Below, in pieces: positions 5,833 to 29,871 of a DNA stretch of 64,000 nt (position 1 is its first letter; each line of letters opens with the position of its first letter). The translations under genes and the position numbers were made by a program. The DNA comes from an uncultured virus (IMG/VR IMGVR_UViG_3300033069_001107). Taxonomy: Duplodnaviria; Heunggongvirae; Uroviricota; Caudoviricetes. The stretch spans positions 1 through 64,000 of IMG/VR virus record IMGVR_UViG_3300033069_001107. One strand, 5' to 3'. Below the pieces are notes generated by a model. It made no database searches, was not told the origin of the DNA, and was given only the letters and a program-made list of their open reading frames with translations.

Positions 5833-6064
5833 CGCGCTTCCCGTGCAGTTCTTCGTTGGCCCGATCCGCCAGATCACCCGCCGACGCGGAGTTGTTCGTG
5901 CCCCAGATCGCGTTAGCGATCGCGCGATAAGCATCCTTGGGCGGGGAACCGCCCTGGATGATGTACCACCCACGCGGCGTCTTCGTCGCGATCATCACGT
6001 CGTTGTAGTGGATGGCCTGATAGTGATCATCCCCACGGAACATCCCGCGCGGCTTTTCTTCCAT
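5819..6064 (-). CDS. hypothetical protein
   Basis: 81-aa ORF with GAGGAG RBS. Confidence 0.7.
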   Translation of the reverse strand: MEEKPRGMFRGDDHYQAIHYNDVMIATKTPRGWYIIQGGSPPKDAYRAIANAIWGTNNSASAGDLADRANEELHGKRDAQA

Positions 6065-19731: not shown

Positions 19732-20009
19732 GCCACTCGCTCCGGCCAGGGTTGATTCATGAAGTGCGCTTCGACACGTGGAGGGAGACACCCTCGCGCC
19801 TGAAAGACCTCCCGCTCGACCGCAGGCGTCAGCGCGAGGATGGAAACCAGCTGAGCCAGCCGCTCCGGGGAGATGCTACTCTTCCCCTTCTCCACGGCGC
19901 TGACGTAGGAGAGGTAGGTCCCGAGGGCGTCCCCGATCTCCTTGTACGTCAGACCCTTCCGCAGCCTCTCTCTGCGGAGGATCTCCCCTAACACACTACG
20001 ATCGTACAC
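19728..20009 (-). CDS. XRE-family HTH transcriptional regulator
   Basis: LGEILRRERLRKGLTYKEIGDALGTYLSYVSAVEKGK. Confidence 0.85.
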   Translation of the reverse strand: MYDRSVLGEILRRERLRKGLTYKEIGDALGTYLSYVSAVEKGKSSISPERLAQLVSILALTPAVEREVFQARGCLPPRVEAHFMNQPWPERVA

Positions 20010-20896: not shown

Positions 20897-22389
20897 CAGA
20901 CATCTCCTTCCAACAGCCGCCGTGCGATCGACGGCGGGTACTCGCCCTTCTTGTTGGGCGTCTGGATCAGCCGGAGGTGTCCCGGATAATCCTTGGTCCA
21001 GAGCGTGCGCGTGATCGCCACGTAGTACAGGTTCTCGTTCTCCTCGCTGCTCAGGCGGAAGGTCCCTTCCATCACCCACACGTCTGTCCACTGGAGTCCC
21101 TTGGCCCGGTGGACGGAGCTGAGCAGGACGAATCCCTCTCCGCCTTCCTCGTCGGTGAAGAGCGCGTTGATCTTCTCGCGCAGCATCGCCACGTTGCGGG
21201 CGCCATCGCCCAGCTCCTTGAGCGCATCGACGATCTCCCCGAGCTCCTCGGCCTGCTCGTCCATCCCGGCGGCGACGAGCCGCTCCCCCTCGTTCTTGCG
21301 GTACTCCAGCGCCCAGTCGTAGAAGGCCGTGATGGAGGTGCCTCGGAACGCGTCGATGACGTTGTTGAACTTCTCGACGTACTCACGGCCCATCACCTTG
21401 GCCCGCACGCCGCGCTTGAGGAGCTGCATGCACACGCGGGTGAGCGCATAGTTCGAGCGGGCGATGACGACGTGCCCAGGGCGGATCATCCCATAGGATT
21501 CCTCCTCCTCCACCCACGTGACCTCGCCCTCCGGGGCGTCCTCGCAGGCCACGTAGTCGTCCACGATACCCTTCGCGATGTCCACGACGATCCGGGGGCA
21601 GCGGAAGGTGACCGTCAGGGGCAGGATCTCGGCCTTGAGGTCGTCGTTCACCAATCCCCGGATGTCGTCTGGGCTGGCCCCCCGGAACTGGTAGATGCAC
21701 TGCCGGTCGTCGAACACCACGATCATTCGCCCCCGGTTGCTGACGGCGCTGGTGATCAGCGCGCGCATCAGGGGGTTGCCGTCCTGGGCCTCGTCGTAGA
21801 GGACGTTGTCGTAGTACCCCGCGCGGATCCCGCGCATGACGGGTTGGTACATCATCTCGTCGAAGGTGATGTCGTTGGTGGGGAGCATGAGCGCCTTGAG
21901 GGTGTCCACCACCCACTCGGCGTACATGTCGTCGGTGTACCCCGCCTGCGGCAATACGCCGTACTGCCGCAGCAGCCCACGGATCTCCTCGGGGGTCTTC
22001 GCGAGGTGGTTCATGGCGTGCTGCGTGAGCTTGGAGACCGCGCCGTACACTCCCTTGGGGTGGACGCCGGGGATGACGCCCTGGACCACCTTGCGCAGCC
22101 GCGTGGAGTCCGGGGCCAGCGTCCACTGGTTGAGGCCCCGCTTCAGCGCGCGGAATCCCAGGCTGTGCGCCGTCATCACGTCCACGTGCTTCGGTACCTG
22201 GGGTCGCGTGTCGTCCGCGTTCTGCTTGTTGAACATCACGATCACGGACTTTTGCCGCTTGGGGATGGCCTCCACCATCTTCTTGATCGTGTAGGACTTG
22301 CCGGTCCCGGCGCGAGCCTGGACCGCGAGGTGATGCGTGGTTGTTCGCGCGCGTTCGATCGCGTGTAGTTGCTGTTCGGTCTCAGCCAT
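20896..22389 (-). CDS. UvrD/Rep-family (SF1) helicase
   Basis: ARAGTGKS, DEAQD, DDRQCIYQFRGA, TFRCP, SVHRAKGLQW and YVAITR motifs. Confidence 0.93.
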   Translation of the reverse strand: MAETEQQLHAIERARTTTHHLAVQARAGTGKSYTIKKMVEAIPKRQKSVIVMFNKQNADDTRPQVPKHVDVMTAHSLGFRALKRGLNQWTLAPDSTRLRKVVQGVIPGVHPKGVYGAVSKLTQHAMNHLAKTPEEIRGLLRQYGVLPQAGYTDDMYAEWVVDTLKALMLPTNDITFDEMMYQPVMRGIRAGYYDNVLYDEAQDGNPLMRALITSAVSNRGRMIVVFDDRQCIYQFRGASPDDIRGLVNDDLKAEILPLTVTFRCPRIVVDIAKGIVDDYVACEDAPEGEVTWVEEEESYGMIRPGHVVIARSNYALTRVCMQLLKRGVRAKVMGREYVEKFNNVIDAFRGTSITAFYDWALEYRKNEGERLVAAGMDEQAEELGEIVDALKELGDGARNVAMLREKINALFTDEEGGEGFVLLSSVHRAKGLQWTDVWVMEGTFRLSSEENENLYYVAITRTLWTKDYPGHLRLIQTPNKKGEYPPSIARRLLEGDV

Positions 22390-25158: not shown

Positions 25159-25581
25159 ATGAACCGTCTCATCACCATCGTCGTCCTGTCGTTCTCCCTC
25201 CTGCTCCCCGGCTGCGCCTCCTGGGCCCAGCGCTACCGGGACACCCCCGTGGCCGCGTTCACGCAGGACGTAGCCTACATGAACCTCGCCGTGGGCGTCG
25301 CCCGCGCGGCGGTCGCCAGCACGGGCGACACCGACGCCATGCGCCAGTTCGACCAGATCGCGGGTCAGGTCCAGCGTGGCCTCGCCCTCGCCACCGACGG
25401 CGTGCGCATCGCCGCCAACGCGGGCAGCAGCCAGCCCGACTACGGGGCCCTCCTGCGCGACTCCAAGTCGGCCATGGGGAGCCTGAACGAGTTCATCCGT
25501 GGGTTCACCACGGGCCCGGGGCAGGCCGCGAACCCGATGATGCGCGAGGCGGCGCTGATGACCGAGAGGGCGGCGCAGTAG
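25159..25581 (+). CDS. lipoprotein
   Basis: Signal peptide MNRLITIVVLSFSLLLPG-C with lipobox-like LPGC. Confidence 0.8.
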   Translation: MNRLITIVVLSFSLLLPGCASWAQRYRDTPVAAFTQDVAYMNLAVGVARAAVASTGDTDAMRQFDQIAGQVQRGLALATDGVRIAANAGSSQPDYGALLRDSKSAMGSLNEFIRGFTTGPGQAANPMMREAALMTERAAQ

Positions 25582-25606
25582 TCGGACCGTATACGGCGTA
25601 CGGGGC

Positions 25607-25650
25607 AAAAGAAAGGCCGAACGCCCCACGGCTCCGAAGAGCCGTGGGGT
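25607..25650 (-). terminator. terminator between convergent genes
   Basis: CCCCACGGCTC-CGAA-GAGCCGTGGGG (UUCG loop on minus) and TTTCTTTT tail. Confidence 0.75.
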
Positions 25651-25659
25651 GGGAGTGGG

Positions 25660-26157
25660 TCAGTCGTCGGTCGCCGGGTAGGGGGTGTACTCAGGCCCCG
25701 CTCCGAGCGGGTAGACCCAGCTGCCCGTCTCCGGCCCGCTCTGGAACACGAGCTTCCCATCGAACATCACAGAGGTCCTGTAGACCCCCGGGCGGGCCCA
25801 CTCGCAGGCCCACGACCAGCCGTAACCATCCTGCTCTTCGCGCCACTCGGTGCGCGCGAGGGCCTCGCAGAACTTCTCCGCGAGGTCGCAAGCATCGCGA
25901 CGCTCTCGCTCCGCGATTCCCAGCAGCGCACAGAGATCCCTACGCTCCTCGGAGCGCGCAGCCTTCCCCTTCTCCGTCGAAGGTTCCGGGCGGTAGTCGA
26001 GGCCGCCTTCCCCCCAGATCTTCTTCCACGCCCGCCCCTCCCGCCCCTTCGGAGTGCTCGTCACCCCCAGCAAGGGCACCGCCTCGTCGGTGTCCCCCAC
26101 CACGAGGTGGAGGAGGCTCAGCATGATCCCGGACACGTCGCGAGTAGTATGCAGCAT
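25660..26157 (-). CDS. hypothetical protein (cassette-like gene)
   Basis: Start ATG 26157, just downstream of repeat copy 1. Confidence 0.7.
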   Translation of the reverse strand: MLHTTRDVSGIMLSLLHLVVGDTDEAVPLLGVTSTPKGREGRAWKKIWGEGGLDYRPEPSTEKGKAARSEERRDLCALLGIAERERRDACDLAEKFCEALARTEWREEQDGYGWSWACEWARPGVYRTSVMFDGKLVFQSGPETGSWVYPLGAGPEYTPYPATDD

Positions 26158-26168
26158 CGTCTCATCTC

Positions 26169-26267
26169 CCGACCCCTCTACGGTGGGGTCCAGCGGCATC
26201 GTACAGCCGCCCGTCGGAACGCCCTATGCGTTACCGATGATCTCCCCTCTAACGCGGGGGAGTTGCG
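26169..26267. repeat. four-hairpin intergenic element, copy 1
   Basis: 64-nt core (26204-26267) identical to copy 2; about 99 nt shared with copy 3. Confidence 0.9.
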
Positions 26268-26273
26268 TTGAGC

Positions 26274-26723
26274 TCAGCCCAGCGGGCGACATTCGCCGCC
26301 GACGGTCTTCAGCTCATGGCCGAAGACCCCCAGCTGGGCTTCCCAGGTACCCTTCACTACACGGTGTCCCGTGTAGTGAAGGGGCGGGTGGTAGCCCTCG
26401 GCGACGTACGCGTCGAGGGCCTTTGCCAGCGCCCCGAGCGCTTGCGGGTCTTCGACGATCCGCTCACGCCCAAGCCCAGTGATTCGCCACTTGGTAGGCG
26501 CGCTCAGACGCGCCCGATCCACGACGCCGAACGCGCCGTAGATCTTCACCCCCGTCTCGGGGTCTTCCGAGATGGGGTATCCGACGGTCACCACGTAGGT
26601 GCCGTCACGCTCGCACAGGACCTCCCCCTCCAGCAGCGCCTCGGGGGGCACATCGGGGAGGGCCTCGAAACGTACGCCCGTGTGCTCTTCCGCACGGGCC
26701 TTGAATGACTCAGTCGATTCCAT
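26274..26723 (-). CDS. hypothetical protein
   Basis: 149-aa ORF ending 6 nt before the repeat. Confidence 0.7.
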   Translation of the reverse strand: MESTESFKARAEEHTGVRFEALPDVPPEALLEGEVLCERDGTYVVTVGYPISEDPETGVKIYGAFGVVDRARLSAPTKWRITGLGRERIVEDPQALGALAKALDAYVAEGYHPPLHYTGHRVVKGTWEAQLGVFGHELKTVGGECRPLG

Positions 26724-26785
26724 TCGTCCACCGATCTCCCGGAGAACTCCGGGTCAACAAACAGACCACCTATCGGGAAGCGTGC

Positions 26786-27454
26786 TCAGCCGTAGCTGGG
26801 TGATACGCACGCAGCGTAGATCTCCGACCACAGGGGGAGATCGTCGTCGCAGAACACCACAGGCACGTCCGCGCGAAACTCCGGGTAGACCCCCGAGAGC
26901 CTCGCGATCGCCACCCCAGCCAGCGCAGCGATCCATCGCCGCGTCCGCCGATATGAACTGGGCCAGTCGGGGTTGATGCTCTCGGAGTCGTCTCCGGTGA
27001 GGACCTCCGTCGACCACACTTGGTCTCTCACCCCGCCCAGTTCGGCGAGGACGAGGATGGTGTCCTCGCTGCGGTGAAGCCGCACCAGCAGAGGTCCCGC
27101 ACACGCCTCGGCGCGCAGACGCCCCGCCTCGATCGCCGCAGTCCACGCGGGCCCCGCTCCGCTCTGCTTCGTAGCAGCACCGAGGCGCTGCCACAGCGGG
27201 TGCCGCTCCGTGCCACAGCCTCCGACGCCTTGGGGGCCTCCGACCCCGACGCTGTCGAGGATGCAGTGAAACACCACAGCGCAGCTGGGGGCCTTGAGGT
27301 ACTCCACGTCGCACGCCGCCATCACGGCGGCGACTCGCGCCTCGTGTCGCTCCTTCGCCGTCAGCTTGACGAGAAGGTCGGCTGCGGGGCCAGTCACTCG
27401 CAGCGCGCTCAGGTTGGCCCGGAGATCACGGGCCGTAGGGGTCATCGTCTTCAT
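26786..27454 (-). CDS. hypothetical protein
   Basis: Start ATG 27454, just downstream of repeat copy 2. Confidence 0.7.
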   Translation of the reverse strand: MKTMTPTARDLRANLSALRVTGPAADLLVKLTAKERHEARVAAVMAACDVEYLKAPSCAVVFHCILDSVGVGGPQGVGGCGTERHPLWQRLGAATKQSGAGPAWTAAIEAGRLRAEACAGPLLVRLHRSEDTILVLAELGGVRDQVWSTEVLTGDDSESINPDWPSSYRRTRRWIAALAGVAIARLSGVYPEFRADVPVVFCDDDLPLWSEIYAACVSPSYG

Positions 27455-27468
27455 TGTCGCATCCTGTT

Positions 27469-27565
27469 CGGGACTTTCGGCTCCCGCTCGCGGCATCCAT
27501 GCAGCCGCCCGTCGGAACGCCCTATGCGTTACCGATGATCTCCCCTCTAACGCGGGGGAGTTGCG
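27469..27565. repeat. four-hairpin intergenic element, copy 2
   Basis: Core 27502-27565; first hairpin replaced by CGGGACTTTCGGCTCCCG. Confidence 0.9.
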
Positions 27566-27577
27566 TCGGTGCTCAGT

Positions 27578-27955
27578 TCAGCTCGGGAGCCTTCCCGTGG
27601 CTACCACCACGTAGCCGGGGAAGTCGCGCTTCATCATCGCATCGAACTCCTCGCCCGCCTTGGCGATGGCCGCGAGCTCCTTGCGCCGCTTCTGCACGGC
27701 GAGGGCCAAGGTCCACATGTGGGCCTCATCTCCCAACGGGATCAGAATCTGGTAGAGCTTCTCCAGTTCCCCGCGATCGAAGATAGCGGTGAATACGCGA
27801 CCAAGACCCTCGCGGTACTCTGCCAGGGGGCGCTTCCCCAGTTCGCGCAGCGTCGCGCGGAGCAGCGGGCCTTCGGACCCGACCCATTCCTGCCGAAGCA
27901 GCAGGAGGCAGTCGTACGCCGTGGGACCATCCCCGGCGCTCTTGTCGTGAGTCAT
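27578..27955 (-). CDS. hypothetical protein
   Basis: Start ATG 27955; flanked by repeat copies 2 and 3. Confidence 0.7.
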   Translation of the reverse strand: MTHDKSAGDGPTAYDCLLLLRQEWVGSEGPLLRATLRELGKRPLAEYREGLGRVFTAIFDRGELEKLYQILIPLGDEAHMWTLALAVQKRRKELAAIAKAGEEFDAMMKRDFPGYVVVATGRLPS

Positions 27956-27966
27956 CGTCGAACCCT

Positions 27967-28065
27967 CCGACCCCTCTACGGTGGGGTCCAGCGGCATCGG
28001 ACAGCCGCCCGTCGGAACGCCCTATGCGTTATCGATGATCTCCCCTCTAACGCGGGGGAGTTGCG
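27967..28065. repeat. four-hairpin intergenic element, copy 3
   Basis: Core 28002-28065 with one C>T change relative to copies 1 and 2. Confidence 0.9.
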
Positions 28066-28066
28066 C

Positions 28067-28495
28067 TCAATCCTCTCGGCAGTCCGAGCAGACTCCCGAC
28101 ACCTTCTTGGAGAACACCACCCCGATCAGGTAGGGGTGCTTCTCCCAGAAGGCTTGGCCGATCTCTTCATCGGTGTGGTTTCGAGGCGAGAGCCTGGGCG
28201 TGGTGCCCGGCTCGACCTTCTCGACCCACACTCCGCTCCCGAGCGGAGCTCCACACGCCTCACACTCCCGCTCGCACAGGATGTGTCCCGGGTTGGTAGG
28301 CATGTCGAGCCCCTTCAGGGTGGCCATACGCTCCGCCCGGACGTAGCGGAGCTTGGCCTCGACTTCCTCGCACTCCTGGTGGAGCTTCCGGCGCTCCCAG
28401 AATGGAACACTATTGAACTGAGACATAAGGCGTCCGTGCTCGTAGGCGAGCTCCTCGATCTGCTCATCGAGAACCTGGATAGACTTCATACGCAT
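28067..28495 (-). CDS. hypothetical protein, coiled coil plus zinc ribbon
   Basis: CEAC and CSDC; AGGAG RBS; stop lies 1 nt before the repeat. Confidence 0.7.
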   Translation of the reverse strand: MRMKSIQVLDEQIEELAYEHGRLMSQFNSVPFWERRKLHQECEEVEAKLRYVRAERMATLKGLDMPTNPGHILCERECEACGAPLGSGVWVEKVEPGTTPRLSPRNHTDEEIGQAFWEKHPYLIGVVFSKKVSGVCSDCRED

Positions 28496-28545
28496 TCTCC
28501 TGACGATTACCCCGAGGACGTGGGGAGGGTTTAGTCCTCTACCTC

Positions 28546-28574
28546 CTTATACCAGAAAGCGCCTACCCCTTCGG
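28546..28574 (-). promoter_or_regulatory. class A phage promoter, copy 4
   Basis: CCGAA-N11-TTTCTGGTATAAG. Confidence 0.7.
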
Positions 28575-28579
28575 GACCC

Positions 28580-28627
28580 AAAGAAACCCACTCTCCGACC
28601 CCCTACCCATCGCTGGATAGGGGGTCG
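28580..28627 (-). terminator. probable terminator
   Basis: CGACCCCCTA/TAGGGGGTCG stem; TTTCTTT downstream on the minus strand. Confidence 0.5.
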
Positions 28628-28644
28628 AAGCAGGGCGATTCCGG

Positions 28645-28920
28645 TCACTTCTTGAGCAGCTTCAAGAGCTCCTTCCCCAGCTGAAGCCCAGCCACCGCGA
28701 CAGGGATCAGGTTGGGGGCGGGGGAGCTGGGGTGGATCTGGGCCTGTTCGTCCGGGGTCAGATCCGCGTACGCCGTATGGGCGGCTTGGATGAGCTGGTC
28801 GGCGTCACGGGTGCCGTTCATGCTGGCGAGCATCGCCGCCTGCATGAGGGCGTGTACATGGGGGGTGCGGGCCTCGACGAGGGCGCGCATACGGGACTGA
28901 GAGGGGAACTCGATAATCAT
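28645..28920 (-). CDS. hypothetical protein
   Basis: Start ATG 28920 or 28953. Confidence 0.6.
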   Translation of the reverse strand: MIIEFPSQSRMRALVEARTPHVHALMQAAMLASMNGTRDADQLIQAAHTAYADLTPDEQAQIHPSSPAPNLIPVAVAGLQLGKELLKLLKK

Positions 28921-29797: not shown

Positions 29798-29841
29798 GGC
29801 GATTCTCCTGGTGGCGTAAGAGCCCACTGCTCCTACACCTT

Positions 29842-29871
29842 CTTATACCCGAAAAGACCCCCTGTTTTCGG
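29842..29871 (-). promoter_or_regulatory. class A phage promoter, copy 5
   Basis: CCGAA-N12-TTTCGGGTATAAG. Confidence 0.7.

Follow-up and report, generated by a model that had tools for sequence, protein, structure and literature searches.

A repeated four-hairpin linker between ORFan genes of an uncultured phage: a candidate RNA leader and joint for gene exchange

We analyzed a window of 64,000 nucleotides (nt), positions 1 to 64,000 of the IMG/VR virus record IMGVR_UViG_3300033069_001107 from an uncultured phage, and found an operon in which one structured linker is reused between unrelated genes. The operon lies on the minus strand and runs from one promoter module through genes A, B, C, D and E to a hairpin terminator, and the linker fills three of its four intergenic gaps (A-B, B-C and D-E). 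Each linker extends from the stop codon of one gene to the start codon of the next and contains four hairpins and a Shine-Dalgarno (SD) sequence. All three linkers lie in this single operon of small ORFan genes with a host-type promoter. Sequence comparison with a related phage suggests that they most likely mark joints where genes were swapped in and out. With moderate confidence, at about an even chance, we read the linker as a promoter-less intercistronic RNA leader combined with an end-hairpin module, whose copies would also provide homology for cassette exchange.

Results

The repeated unit is the whole intercistronic spacer

A repeat search returned one family of three 113-nt copies in direct orientation (26155-26267, 27453-27565 and 27953-28065), the same three that an earlier, sequence-only reading of this DNA had picked out. 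The ungapped identity of the other two repeats to copy 1 was 94% and 68%, with copies 1 and 3 forming the 94% identical pair. A 28-mer from the core had three matches, all on the minus strand, compared to none in 100 shuffles. The linkers start 6, 12 and 1 nt past the TGA of D, B and A, respectively, and the last hairpin ends 13 to 14 nt before the ATG of E, C and B; these values agree with the start 1 to 12 nt after a stop codon that had been reported. Similarity between the copies begins at the stop codon (TGAGC..CGCAAC) and reaches the start codon (GAC[G/A]ATG), and therefore the repeated unit is the whole intercistronic spacer of 111 to 123 nt. The alignments also agree with the earlier statement that a 64-nt core is invariant save for one base, a G/A difference in the 5' arm of the second hairpin.

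In self-BLAST the element was the longest non-coding repeat family; paralogous coding sequences and promoter modules made up the other repeats. We built a covariance model (R1) from the three copies, and it found only those three in the record and in the complete genome of the same phage, even at E ≤ 10, and one further copy in the relative. The element matched no known family, as had been supposed: Rfam gave no match in the window at the gathering score and, at E ≤ 1, nothing on the element in window 25500-28700 or in locus L019. ARAGORN found no tRNA genes, and no terminal inverted repeat could be read from the sequence at the element ends.

Hairpins of the linker and the evidence for their structure

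The hairpins were named H1 to H4 in transcript order, and all four were found in every copy in the window. H1 pairs CUCCCC with GGGGAG, H2 pairs UCGGUAACGC with GCGUUCCGA and has a bulged U, and H3 pairs GCGGC with GCCGC around a variable loop, which is 1 nt longer in copy 2. H4 pairs GACCCC with GGGGUC; in copy 2 it is replaced by CGGGA/UCCCG in the same shape. Four hairpins per copy, one with a variable loop (H3) and one with a stem replaced in copy 2 (H4), had likewise been described before. The longest helix in the element is 9 bp with one bulge. The stem and loop (CGCGUUAGA) of H1 resemble those of H4, as read from the sequence. GAUCAUC, between H1 and H2, is the only longer unpaired stretch. 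The H2-H3-H4 unit ends 0 to 1 nt ahead of the SD sequence, which is canonical and lies 8 nt ahead of the downstream ATG.

The folding energy alone is unexceptional for such G+C-rich RNA. It is only marginally better than that of shuffled sequences, and therefore the case for structure rests on comparison. We aligned four copies, the three in the window and the one in the relative (locus L015). In this alignment, 96% of the pair cells held standard pairs, compared to 35 to 54% when the partners were slid by 1 to 3 columns. Five of the six pairs of H4 change on both sides, giving three stems, GACCCC/GGGGUC, CGGGA/UCCCG and GCACGC/GCGUGC, with the loops ACCGUAGA, GCCGAAAG and GCCGUAGA, respectively. 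The loop is kept throughout, with the pattern RCCGWAGA/GCCGAAAG. The stems of H2 and H3 are identical at 27 of 28 positions between the two phages, and their loops differ at 2 of 5 and 3 of 8 positions, respectively. No H4-type hairpin with the same loop was found upstream of other start codons genome-wide.

Gene starts in this phage are generally less structured than the genes themselves. Over 199 starts, the region from -50 to -7 had a mean folding energy of -9.6 kcal/mol, compared to -12.0 kcal/mol for intragenic sequence (p = 4e-8). The same region reached -19.3 and -16.4 kcal/mol in copies 3 and 1, which rank 5th and 9th among the 59 of these starts that have a hairpin of at least 6 bp. 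The structured leader is special in this genome. A further test was aimed at sequestration of the SD sequence by an upstream pyrimidine tract closing a three-hairpin junction; with shuffled flanks, 1 of 60 shuffles for copy 3 and 3 of 60 for copy 1 reached the native SD pairing, as did 24 of 60 for copy 2 and 14 of 60 for L015.

We also considered the 64-nt core as a coding sequence. This is ruled out by the reading frames, because the frame of the downstream gene is closed in copies 1 and 3 by a TAG in the H2 loop, and copy 2, whose H3 loop has a 1-nt indel, has its core in another frame.

Gene content differs from that of a relative at borders within the linker

The one relative is IMG/VR contig ..005835 (G002, containing locus L015), in which the helicase and the downstream lipoprotein-like gene show 84% and 86% protein identity, respectively. 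L015 has exactly one element copy (79 bits, E = 9e-26), directly upstream of a homologue of gene B, which is the only cassette gene common to the window and the relative. The two B genes share 61% amino acid and 69% nucleotide identity, and the genes neighbouring B show 71 to 89% nucleotide identity between the phages.

BLAST of the window against L015 gave three collinear blocks (Table 1). Copy 3 is orthologous to L015:6643-6729 from H2 onward. At the left joint, gene A and H1 in the window correspond to two other open reading frames (ORFs) in the relative, each with a hairpin-plus-promoter module, and these are followed by about 220 nt of structured non-coding RNA. At the right joint, the relative lacks a 1.9-kb stretch with the remainder of copy 2 and all of C, D, copy 1 and E, and its CAACTCCCCC runs directly into the terminator stem. 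A similar sequence, CACTCCCACCCC, precedes the terminator of the window. Blocks 2 and 3 overlap by 7 nt with the microhomology CCCC(A/G)CG, and the operon end of the window is the right joint of this 1.9-kb difference. Since homology begins exactly at H2 and reaches no further than the H1 5' arm, the element is composite: H1 goes with the gene upstream of it, and H2-H4 with the SD sequence go with the gene that follows. The relative does not conserve H1, and GAUCAUC coincides with the evolutionary border between the linker halves. Gene content between the phages differs at exactly these joints, by indels or replacements; one joint is the H1/H2 border of the element and the other its H1 5' arm. 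The genes between the repeats are not invariant, which is in line with the exchange of genes that the sequence-only reading had suspected.

Further alleles of gene B point, as does the comparison of the H2 to H4 hairpins, to conservation of the leader. P0006, a B homologue, is 70% identical to B overall but differs at 14 of the first 41 residues, and its ORF call starts with 14 residues that are the same as the in-frame reading of the H3 loop, H4 and SD sequence of copy 3. In contigs of run X6, almost unchanged parts of the element flank a diverged B allele (45 differences over 257 nt). Among the changes within the element, one converts the H3 loop to the copy 1 version, and a C to U change in H4 keeps a G-U pair.

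Some other variants were noted at this locus. P0003 appears to combine a 5' half of the window type with a 3' half of the relative type, and it carries a 28-residue insertion. The window version of gene B stops two codons early (..RLPS*) compared to its homologues (..RLPERN or ..RLPELN; window 27578-27590 versus L015:7095-7110), apparently because of a 1-nt difference just before the stop. In run X7, a contig over window 26192-26229 joins a window-type H2 loop and H3 to a relative-type H4 (GCACGC..GCGUGC), with other upstream sequence. From loose ends of only 30 nt, it suggests further mosaic leader versions in public data.

Operon layout and genes

The coordinates of the operon, its linkers and the homologous blocks are collected in Table 1.

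Table 1. Features of the linker operon in the window and blocks shared with locus L015 of the relative
Feature	Position in window	Strand	Remarks
Promoter module	28496..28644	-	17-bp-arm hairpin 28593-28630, extended -10 TGgTATAAG 28543-28557, leader hairpin, SD
Gene A	28067..28495	-	142 aa, CxxC pairs; no family; absent from relative
Linker copy 3	27956..28066	-	between A and B; H1 28040-28060, H2 28012-28035, H3 27991-28008, H4 27969-27988, SD GGAGG 27964-27968; 140.6 bits
Gene B	27578..27955	-	125 aa, all-helical, no family
Linker copy 2	27455..27577	-	between B and C; H1 27540-27560, H2 27512-27535, H3 27490-27508, H4' 27469-27486, SD AGGA 27462-27465; 134 bits
Gene C	26786..27454	-	222 aa; no family; absent from relative
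C-D spacer	26724..26785	-	without element
Gene D	26274..26723	-	149 aa; no family; absent from relative
Linker copy 1	26158..26273	-	between D and E; H1 26242-26262, H2 26214-26237, H3 26193-26210, H4 26171-26190, SD GGGAG 26166-26170; 146.2 bits
Gene E	25660..26157	-	165 aa; no family; absent from relative
Operon end	25606..25659	-	CACTCCCACCCC (25646-25657), then terminator hairpin, then T-run
Block 1	30250-28495	-	L015 3590-5332; ends at A start codon
Block 2	28036-27551	-	L015 6643-7132; begins one base before copy 3 H2, runs through B, ends in copy 2 H1 5' arm
Block 3	25649-24754	-	L015 7126-8017; begins at terminator stem

One promoter and one terminator had been assigned to the operon, and both assignments hold. 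Within the operon region the promoter motif TTCTGGTATAAGGAG occurs only in the promoter module, and the single terminator-like site (25613-25649) lies at the operon end, in a strong hairpin terminator (25606-25649) where the hairpin CCCCACGGCUC-UUCG-GAGCCGUGGGG (25624-25649) is followed by a T-run. No promoter-like sites were predicted in 25400-28800. The sequence CACTCCCACCCC before the terminator resembles the linker start. The C-D spacer has its own 6-bp hairpin, CCCGGA-GUUC-UCCGGG (26738-26753), which overlaps the SD sequence GGGAG. As read from the sequence, the tail of this spacer (GGGAGATC..GACGAATG) is similar to the linker 3' end, and the spacer may be a reduced version of the linker.

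The flanking genes had been called unrelated; indeed, no pair among A-E and their neighbours aligned better than E = 0.05. Searches of A-E against Pfam and PHROGs gave nothing, or matches at E ~0.005 to families of unknown function. The AlphaFold model of gene B was all-helical, with a predicted local distance difference test score (pLDDT) of 60, rising to 73 with 8 sequences. Tried as an RNA-binding autoregulator, the model had no match in the PDB at E ≤ 0.001 and no usable match in the Atlas.

The promoter module is 88.5% identical to that of the relative. The combination of hairpin, extended -10 (TGgTATAAG), leader hairpin and SD sequence is repeated in the genome and also occurs near 2371-2385 and 29839-29853. 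In the relative, two copies of the module that are 94% alike (L015:5190-5338 and 5846-5995) flank the two ORFans that replace gene A. A third, degenerate module (L015:6395-6450) shows compensatory changes in a 14-bp hairpin. About 340 nt of non-coding sequence (L015:6376-6745) lies between this third module and the B homologue and ends in the H2-H4 leader. The 370-nt L015 leader folds at -174 kcal/mol and has no Rfam match.

The phage and the scope of the searches

The window is part of a virus record of 74,140 nt with 64% G+C (G000), which comes from the same phage as the complete 172,885-nt IMG/VR contig ..005251 (G001). Positions 20001 and 40001 of the record map to positions 163780 and 10918 of the complete contig, respectively, and the genome is therefore circularly permuted. 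The phage encodes DNA polymerase A, a GpA-type terminase, an RNA-polymerase beta'-like protein and a sigma-like factor, as well as ThyX, ribonucleotide reductase and further enzymes of nucleotide metabolism. A DNA search against 50,697 phage records gave no match to this phage, the UvrD-like helicase showed at most 29% identity to any of these records, and gene B had no match among cultured phages. Part of the stretch is present in 20 public runs from 10 studies, and the runs are mostly labelled wastewater. The B homologues P0003-P0008 are likewise encoded on short contigs.

Searches of IMG/VR with the helicase, gene B and the downstream protein found only the same phage (..005251) and the one relative (..005835), and four exact or degenerate DNA patterns of the element gave the same result. 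A looser hairpin pattern added 4 loci, which were rejected as chance matches (18 bits or less, on loci pre-selected by the pattern). A gene B query against a metagenome collection gave 95 candidate stretches, none of which was confirmed. The loose pattern TTCCGACGGGCGGCN{7,10}GCCGC proved too permissive, with at least 119 and at least 120 loci in metagenome and genome contigs, respectively; among the 239 matches listed, none extends past the pattern, and the best local score was 29 of 116.

A Pfam scan was run on 49 + 102 ORFs of the complete genome at thresholds of E ≤ 1e-3 and 1e-5. These are 151 of about 193 to 199 called ORFs, with ORFs below 60 aa and about 40 further called ORFs left out. 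No match among the 151 was to an integrase, a transposase, a tyrosine or serine recombinase or any other recombinase, and none was to an HUH or Y1 enzyme.

Two other repeat families were observed in the genome. Eight small DUF6197 (PF19698) paralogues lie within about 3.3 kb, seven of them back to back (G001 about 133700-137000; L269:13733-16983). A ninth copy is fused in a larger protein (L268:11713-12507), and the DUF6197 repeats also appear in self-BLAST. For the 9-bp quasi-palindrome TACGSCGTA, we counted 35 sites in the window (for example, 25592-25600, 28769-28777 and 21955-21963), compared to 0.16 expected; the complete 173-kb genome has 92 sites, and the 37-kb relative has 20. Its extended consensus is the 15-bp palindrome CCR-TACGSCGTA-YGG. 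The sites are intragenic in 68 of 92 cases, fall in all three codon phases and are spaced more evenly than random (coefficient of variation 0.58). The sequence looks like a dispersed DNA-level signal, such as candidate binding sites of a phage DNA-binding protein; the phage also encodes a ParB-HTH protein.

Discussion

The linker copies lie on the sense strand and abut the SD sequence. We propose that the linker is transcribed within the polycistronic mRNA and works as RNA, with H1 as the 3' hairpin of the upstream ORF and H2-H3-H4 as a three-hairpin leader of the downstream ORF. The pre-folded leader would fix, and would probably regulate, ribosome access to the following ORF, and any ORF placed behind it would get the same pre-folded initiation context. 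H4, together with the look-alike H1, may be a loop-specific recognition hairpin beside the SD sequence, comparable to a translational operator. GAUCAUC is a likely processing point, where an endonucleolytic cut would give each cistron a hairpin protecting its 3' end and a 5' end that is structured. In the DNA, the CAACTCCCCC motif and the near-identical copies could serve as homology for replacement, gain and loss of ORF cassettes by ordinary homologous or microhomology recombination without a dedicated recombinase. The near-identity of the copies over 64 to 113 nt would make them substrates for exchange between co-infecting relatives and for unequal crossing-over.

The sequence-only reading had offered two functions, a recombination site for gene capture or an RNA processing or regulatory module. 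The RNA module gains indirect support: H4 covaries with its loop kept, the H2 and H3 stems are kept, and the copies lie on the sense strand next to the SD sequence. The recombination site is supported only in its PeSL-like form of homology-driven exchange, consistent with the different gene content at the sub-borders of the element in the one relative, and is not supported in its integron-like form, with no recombinase in the 151 scanned ORFs, joints at two positions and four short hairpins in place of one of the attC type.

Several observations weigh against a leader that doubles as an exchange module. The alignment comprises four sequence-distinct copies from two phage lineages, and copies 1 and 3 are nearly the same. 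The folding z-scores against dinucleotide shuffles are -2.0, -1.2 and -1.1 for the three copies. H2 and H3 never covary, and therefore their pairing is not demonstrated; H2 of copy 3 contains an A.C mismatch. The SD pairing of copy 2 and L015 was reached by 24 and 14 of 60 shuffles, respectively. No trans-acting factor can be named, with A-E lacking a family. The joint of the 1.9-kb indel is a short microhomology with the pre-terminator sequence and not a full-copy crossover. A search for circularised or deleted cassettes, which had been suggested with the earlier reading, gave no copy-to-copy joint, deletion or circle in the contigs of four runs, which break at repeats and cannot show rare forms.

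The low folding scores could also be expected of a passive duplication scar, that is, a linker copied along with ORF insertion (illegitimate or homologous) whose only function is to supply an SD sequence and whose hairpins are inherited. A scar would likewise fit the fact that just three copies exist, all within 1.9 kb and none elsewhere in the genome, and that copies 1 and 3 are as similar as young duplicates. However, the H4 stems differ by fully compensatory changes with the loop kept, and the H2 and H3 stems are almost identical next to flanking genes at 69 to 89% identity while their loops drift. Moreover, the leader reading is unchanged upstream of the B allele with the divergent N-terminus (14/41 residues), and the borders are stop and start codons in all three copies. 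We consider a scar unlikely. Invariant arms with variable spacers, as seen in H2 and H3, also fit double-stranded DNA operators, in which the palindromes would bind a dimeric regulator acting as a roadblock or silencer inside the operon. Such an array is improbable, since H4 shows the opposite behaviour (variable arms and a conserved centre), which requires a hairpin, no promoter lies in or near the copies, and the sites occur nowhere else in the genome.

A riboswitch or a protein-operated translational switch, as a new kind of cis-regulatory RNA, would have an H2-H4 junction whose closing helix forms between the SD sequence and a pyrimidine tract upstream (CUCCC in the window, UUCC in the relative), and a ligand or protein would shift the balance of this pairing. 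The minimum-free-energy folds do close this junction, by CUCCC/GGGAG in copy 1 and UUCC/GGAG in L015, the SD pairing is above shuffled controls in copies 3 and 1, the H4 loop is conserved beside the SD sequence, and the 370-nt L015 leader reaches z = -4.4 against shuffles. However, the closing helix is not conserved, with copy 2 and L015 no better than shuffles, Rfam gave no match, and H1 competes with the closing helix only in the copies of the window. Because the leader serves unrelated ORFans, no metabolic logic for a ligand is apparent. We see only a small chance for this switch. Equally small is the chance of its broadest version, in which H2-H4 with the SD sequence in the closing helix would be an undescribed, portable class of cis-regulatory RNA. 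Its three-hairpin junction, with a conserved H4 loop that also occurs in H1, would be read by a phage or host factor or a small ligand and would place several unrelated early ORFan cassettes under one post-transcriptional switch, the unit doubling as a recombination joint. Small ribozymes are common in phage DNA, and a compact multi-hairpin unit repeated between cistrons might split the transcript of the operon as a self-cleaving ribozyme or another catalytic RNA. This is very improbable: no Rfam ribozyme family matched even at E ≤ 1, H1 is not conserved in the relative, and few invariant unpaired nucleotides lie outside the stems. The idea of an N-terminal extension, with translation starting at an AUG in the H3 loop and giving a shared leader peptide MPLDPTVEGS..., draws on the fact that this AUG is in frame with the ORF with no stop between in all four copies, and that gene callers used it in 2 of 9 B-family clusters. 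It is hardly credible, because the 64-nt core lies upstream of that AUG and its frame is not constant, the peptide is wholly different between the H4 variants although base-pairing is kept, and the canonical SD sequence precedes the downstream ATG, with none before the loop AUG.

The array also recalls integrons, in which folded attC elements separate promoter-less, unrelated ORFs behind one promoter; here, too, a conserved folded element separates unrelated ORFs, and the gene content differs from that of the relative at the element. A site-specific, integron-like or single-stranded-DNA recombination site that captures cassettes is nevertheless highly improbable. The 151 scanned ORFs include no integrase or other enzyme of the kinds listed above, and the crossover points are not fixed but fall at two different element positions. 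The linker consists of four short hairpins and not of one long, imperfect, bulged hairpin with paired R''/R' core sites (RYYYAAC / GTTRRRY); the boxes CGCAAC and GTTAGAG, 8 nt apart within H1, pair only at AAC/GTT. The linker also carries an SD sequence and a start codon, and, as weaker evidence, no circular or deleted form was seen in the contigs of the four runs.

The intercistronic leader with an end hairpin, which we favor, can be compared with other repeated elements. Repetitive extragenic palindromes (REP) and bacterial interspersed mosaic elements (BIME) are dispersed in hundreds of copies, and the RNase III sites of T7 are single long irregular hairpins with a helix of about two turns between cistrons. 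Like these, and like the intergenic repeats of halovirus HF2, the linker is a repeated intergenic sequence with intercistronic hairpins that may shape operon expression or mRNA stability. Unlike REP/BIME or miniature inverted-repeat transposable elements, it has three copies at one locus in 173 kb, has no terminal inverted repeat and was not found in IMG/VR beyond this phage and one relative. Unlike the T7 sites, its longest helix is just 9 bp with a bulge. The HF2 repeats carry promoters (PMC8707807).

The nearest match in consequence is the promoter early stem-loop (PeSL) of T4-type phages. A strong sigma70-like promoter and a terminator stem-loop define this unit, which is present about 50 times per genome (Arbiol et al. 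2010, PMC2839356; Comeau et al. 2014, PMC4122927). PeSLs are described there as a 'mobile regulatory cassette' that runs from a stop codon to an SD sequence and start, contains stem-loops, flanks ORFans and marks indels between relatives (PMC2839356). Measured against these descriptions, the linker likewise runs with its stem-loops from the upstream stop to the next SD sequence and start, lies beside ORFans in a variable early region, and coincides with differences between relatives. However, it has no promoter, its hairpins are not followed by a T-run or U-tract (the sole terminator-like site being at the operon end), and it comprises four hairpins in three copies within one operon. Mini-circles, which recombination between PeSL copies gives, were not seen for the linker in the contigs of the four runs, in which rare forms would not show. 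The linker is not a member of the PeSL class, because the defining promoter is absent and no terminator-like site lies within it; it is PeSL-like in consequence and not in composition. In this phage lineage, the PeSL analogue proper is another element, the hairpin-plus-promoter module (window 28496-28644), of which L015 has two tandem copies flanking ORFans.

The start-associated sequence (SAS) of Cluster K mycobacteriophages is a 13-bp motif with about 10 to 20 sites per genome and the consensus GGGATAGGAGCCC, located 3 to 7 bp before gene starts. The extended form (ESAS) has an upstream inverted repeat with a variable spacer and little compensatory support for hairpins, and its suspected role in translation is unproven (Pope et al. 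2011, PMC3203893). The linker shares with SAS/ESAS a conserved sequence in one orientation, including the SD sequence, directly before the starts of unrelated non-structural genes. It differs in its length of about 115 nt, in its restriction to one operon and in the covariation of H4, and the 13-bp SAS consensus had no match in the window with up to 2 mismatches. H4 also resembles phage translational operators such as those of T4/RB69 gp43 and RegA/RegB, where the ribosome-binding site is adjacent to, or overlapped by, a short hairpin whose loop is sequence-specific. In the gp43 hairpin operators of T4 and RB69 the loop bases are identical and the stems differ in length (review PMC3014915), and this is the nearest worked example for the recognition role that H4, with its kept loop and variable stem, may have. 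Unlike these operators, the linker has no known cognate protein, serves three unrelated ORFs instead of one autoregulated gene and has two more invariant hairpins.

The value of the linker is limited by its tiny family and by a host that is not identified. The early regions of large phages have the fastest turnover of anti-host and anti-defence ORFans, and how new ORFs are captured and immediately expressed is understood for few model groups, such as the T4-type phages with their PeSLs. The locus described here represents a promoter-less variant, in which a standard structured stop-to-start linker is reused before unrelated ORFs and the gene gains and losses between relatives fall at the sub-borders of the linker. 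If the switch reading were true, new ORFs would plug into existing control, much as in an integron array, but by homologous recombination. Should the RNA function hold true, the linker would be a natural plug-in module for expression and insulation in polycistronic mRNAs, and a defined hairpin with a variable stem and a fixed loop beside the SD sequence could serve as bait for an RNA-binding regulator.

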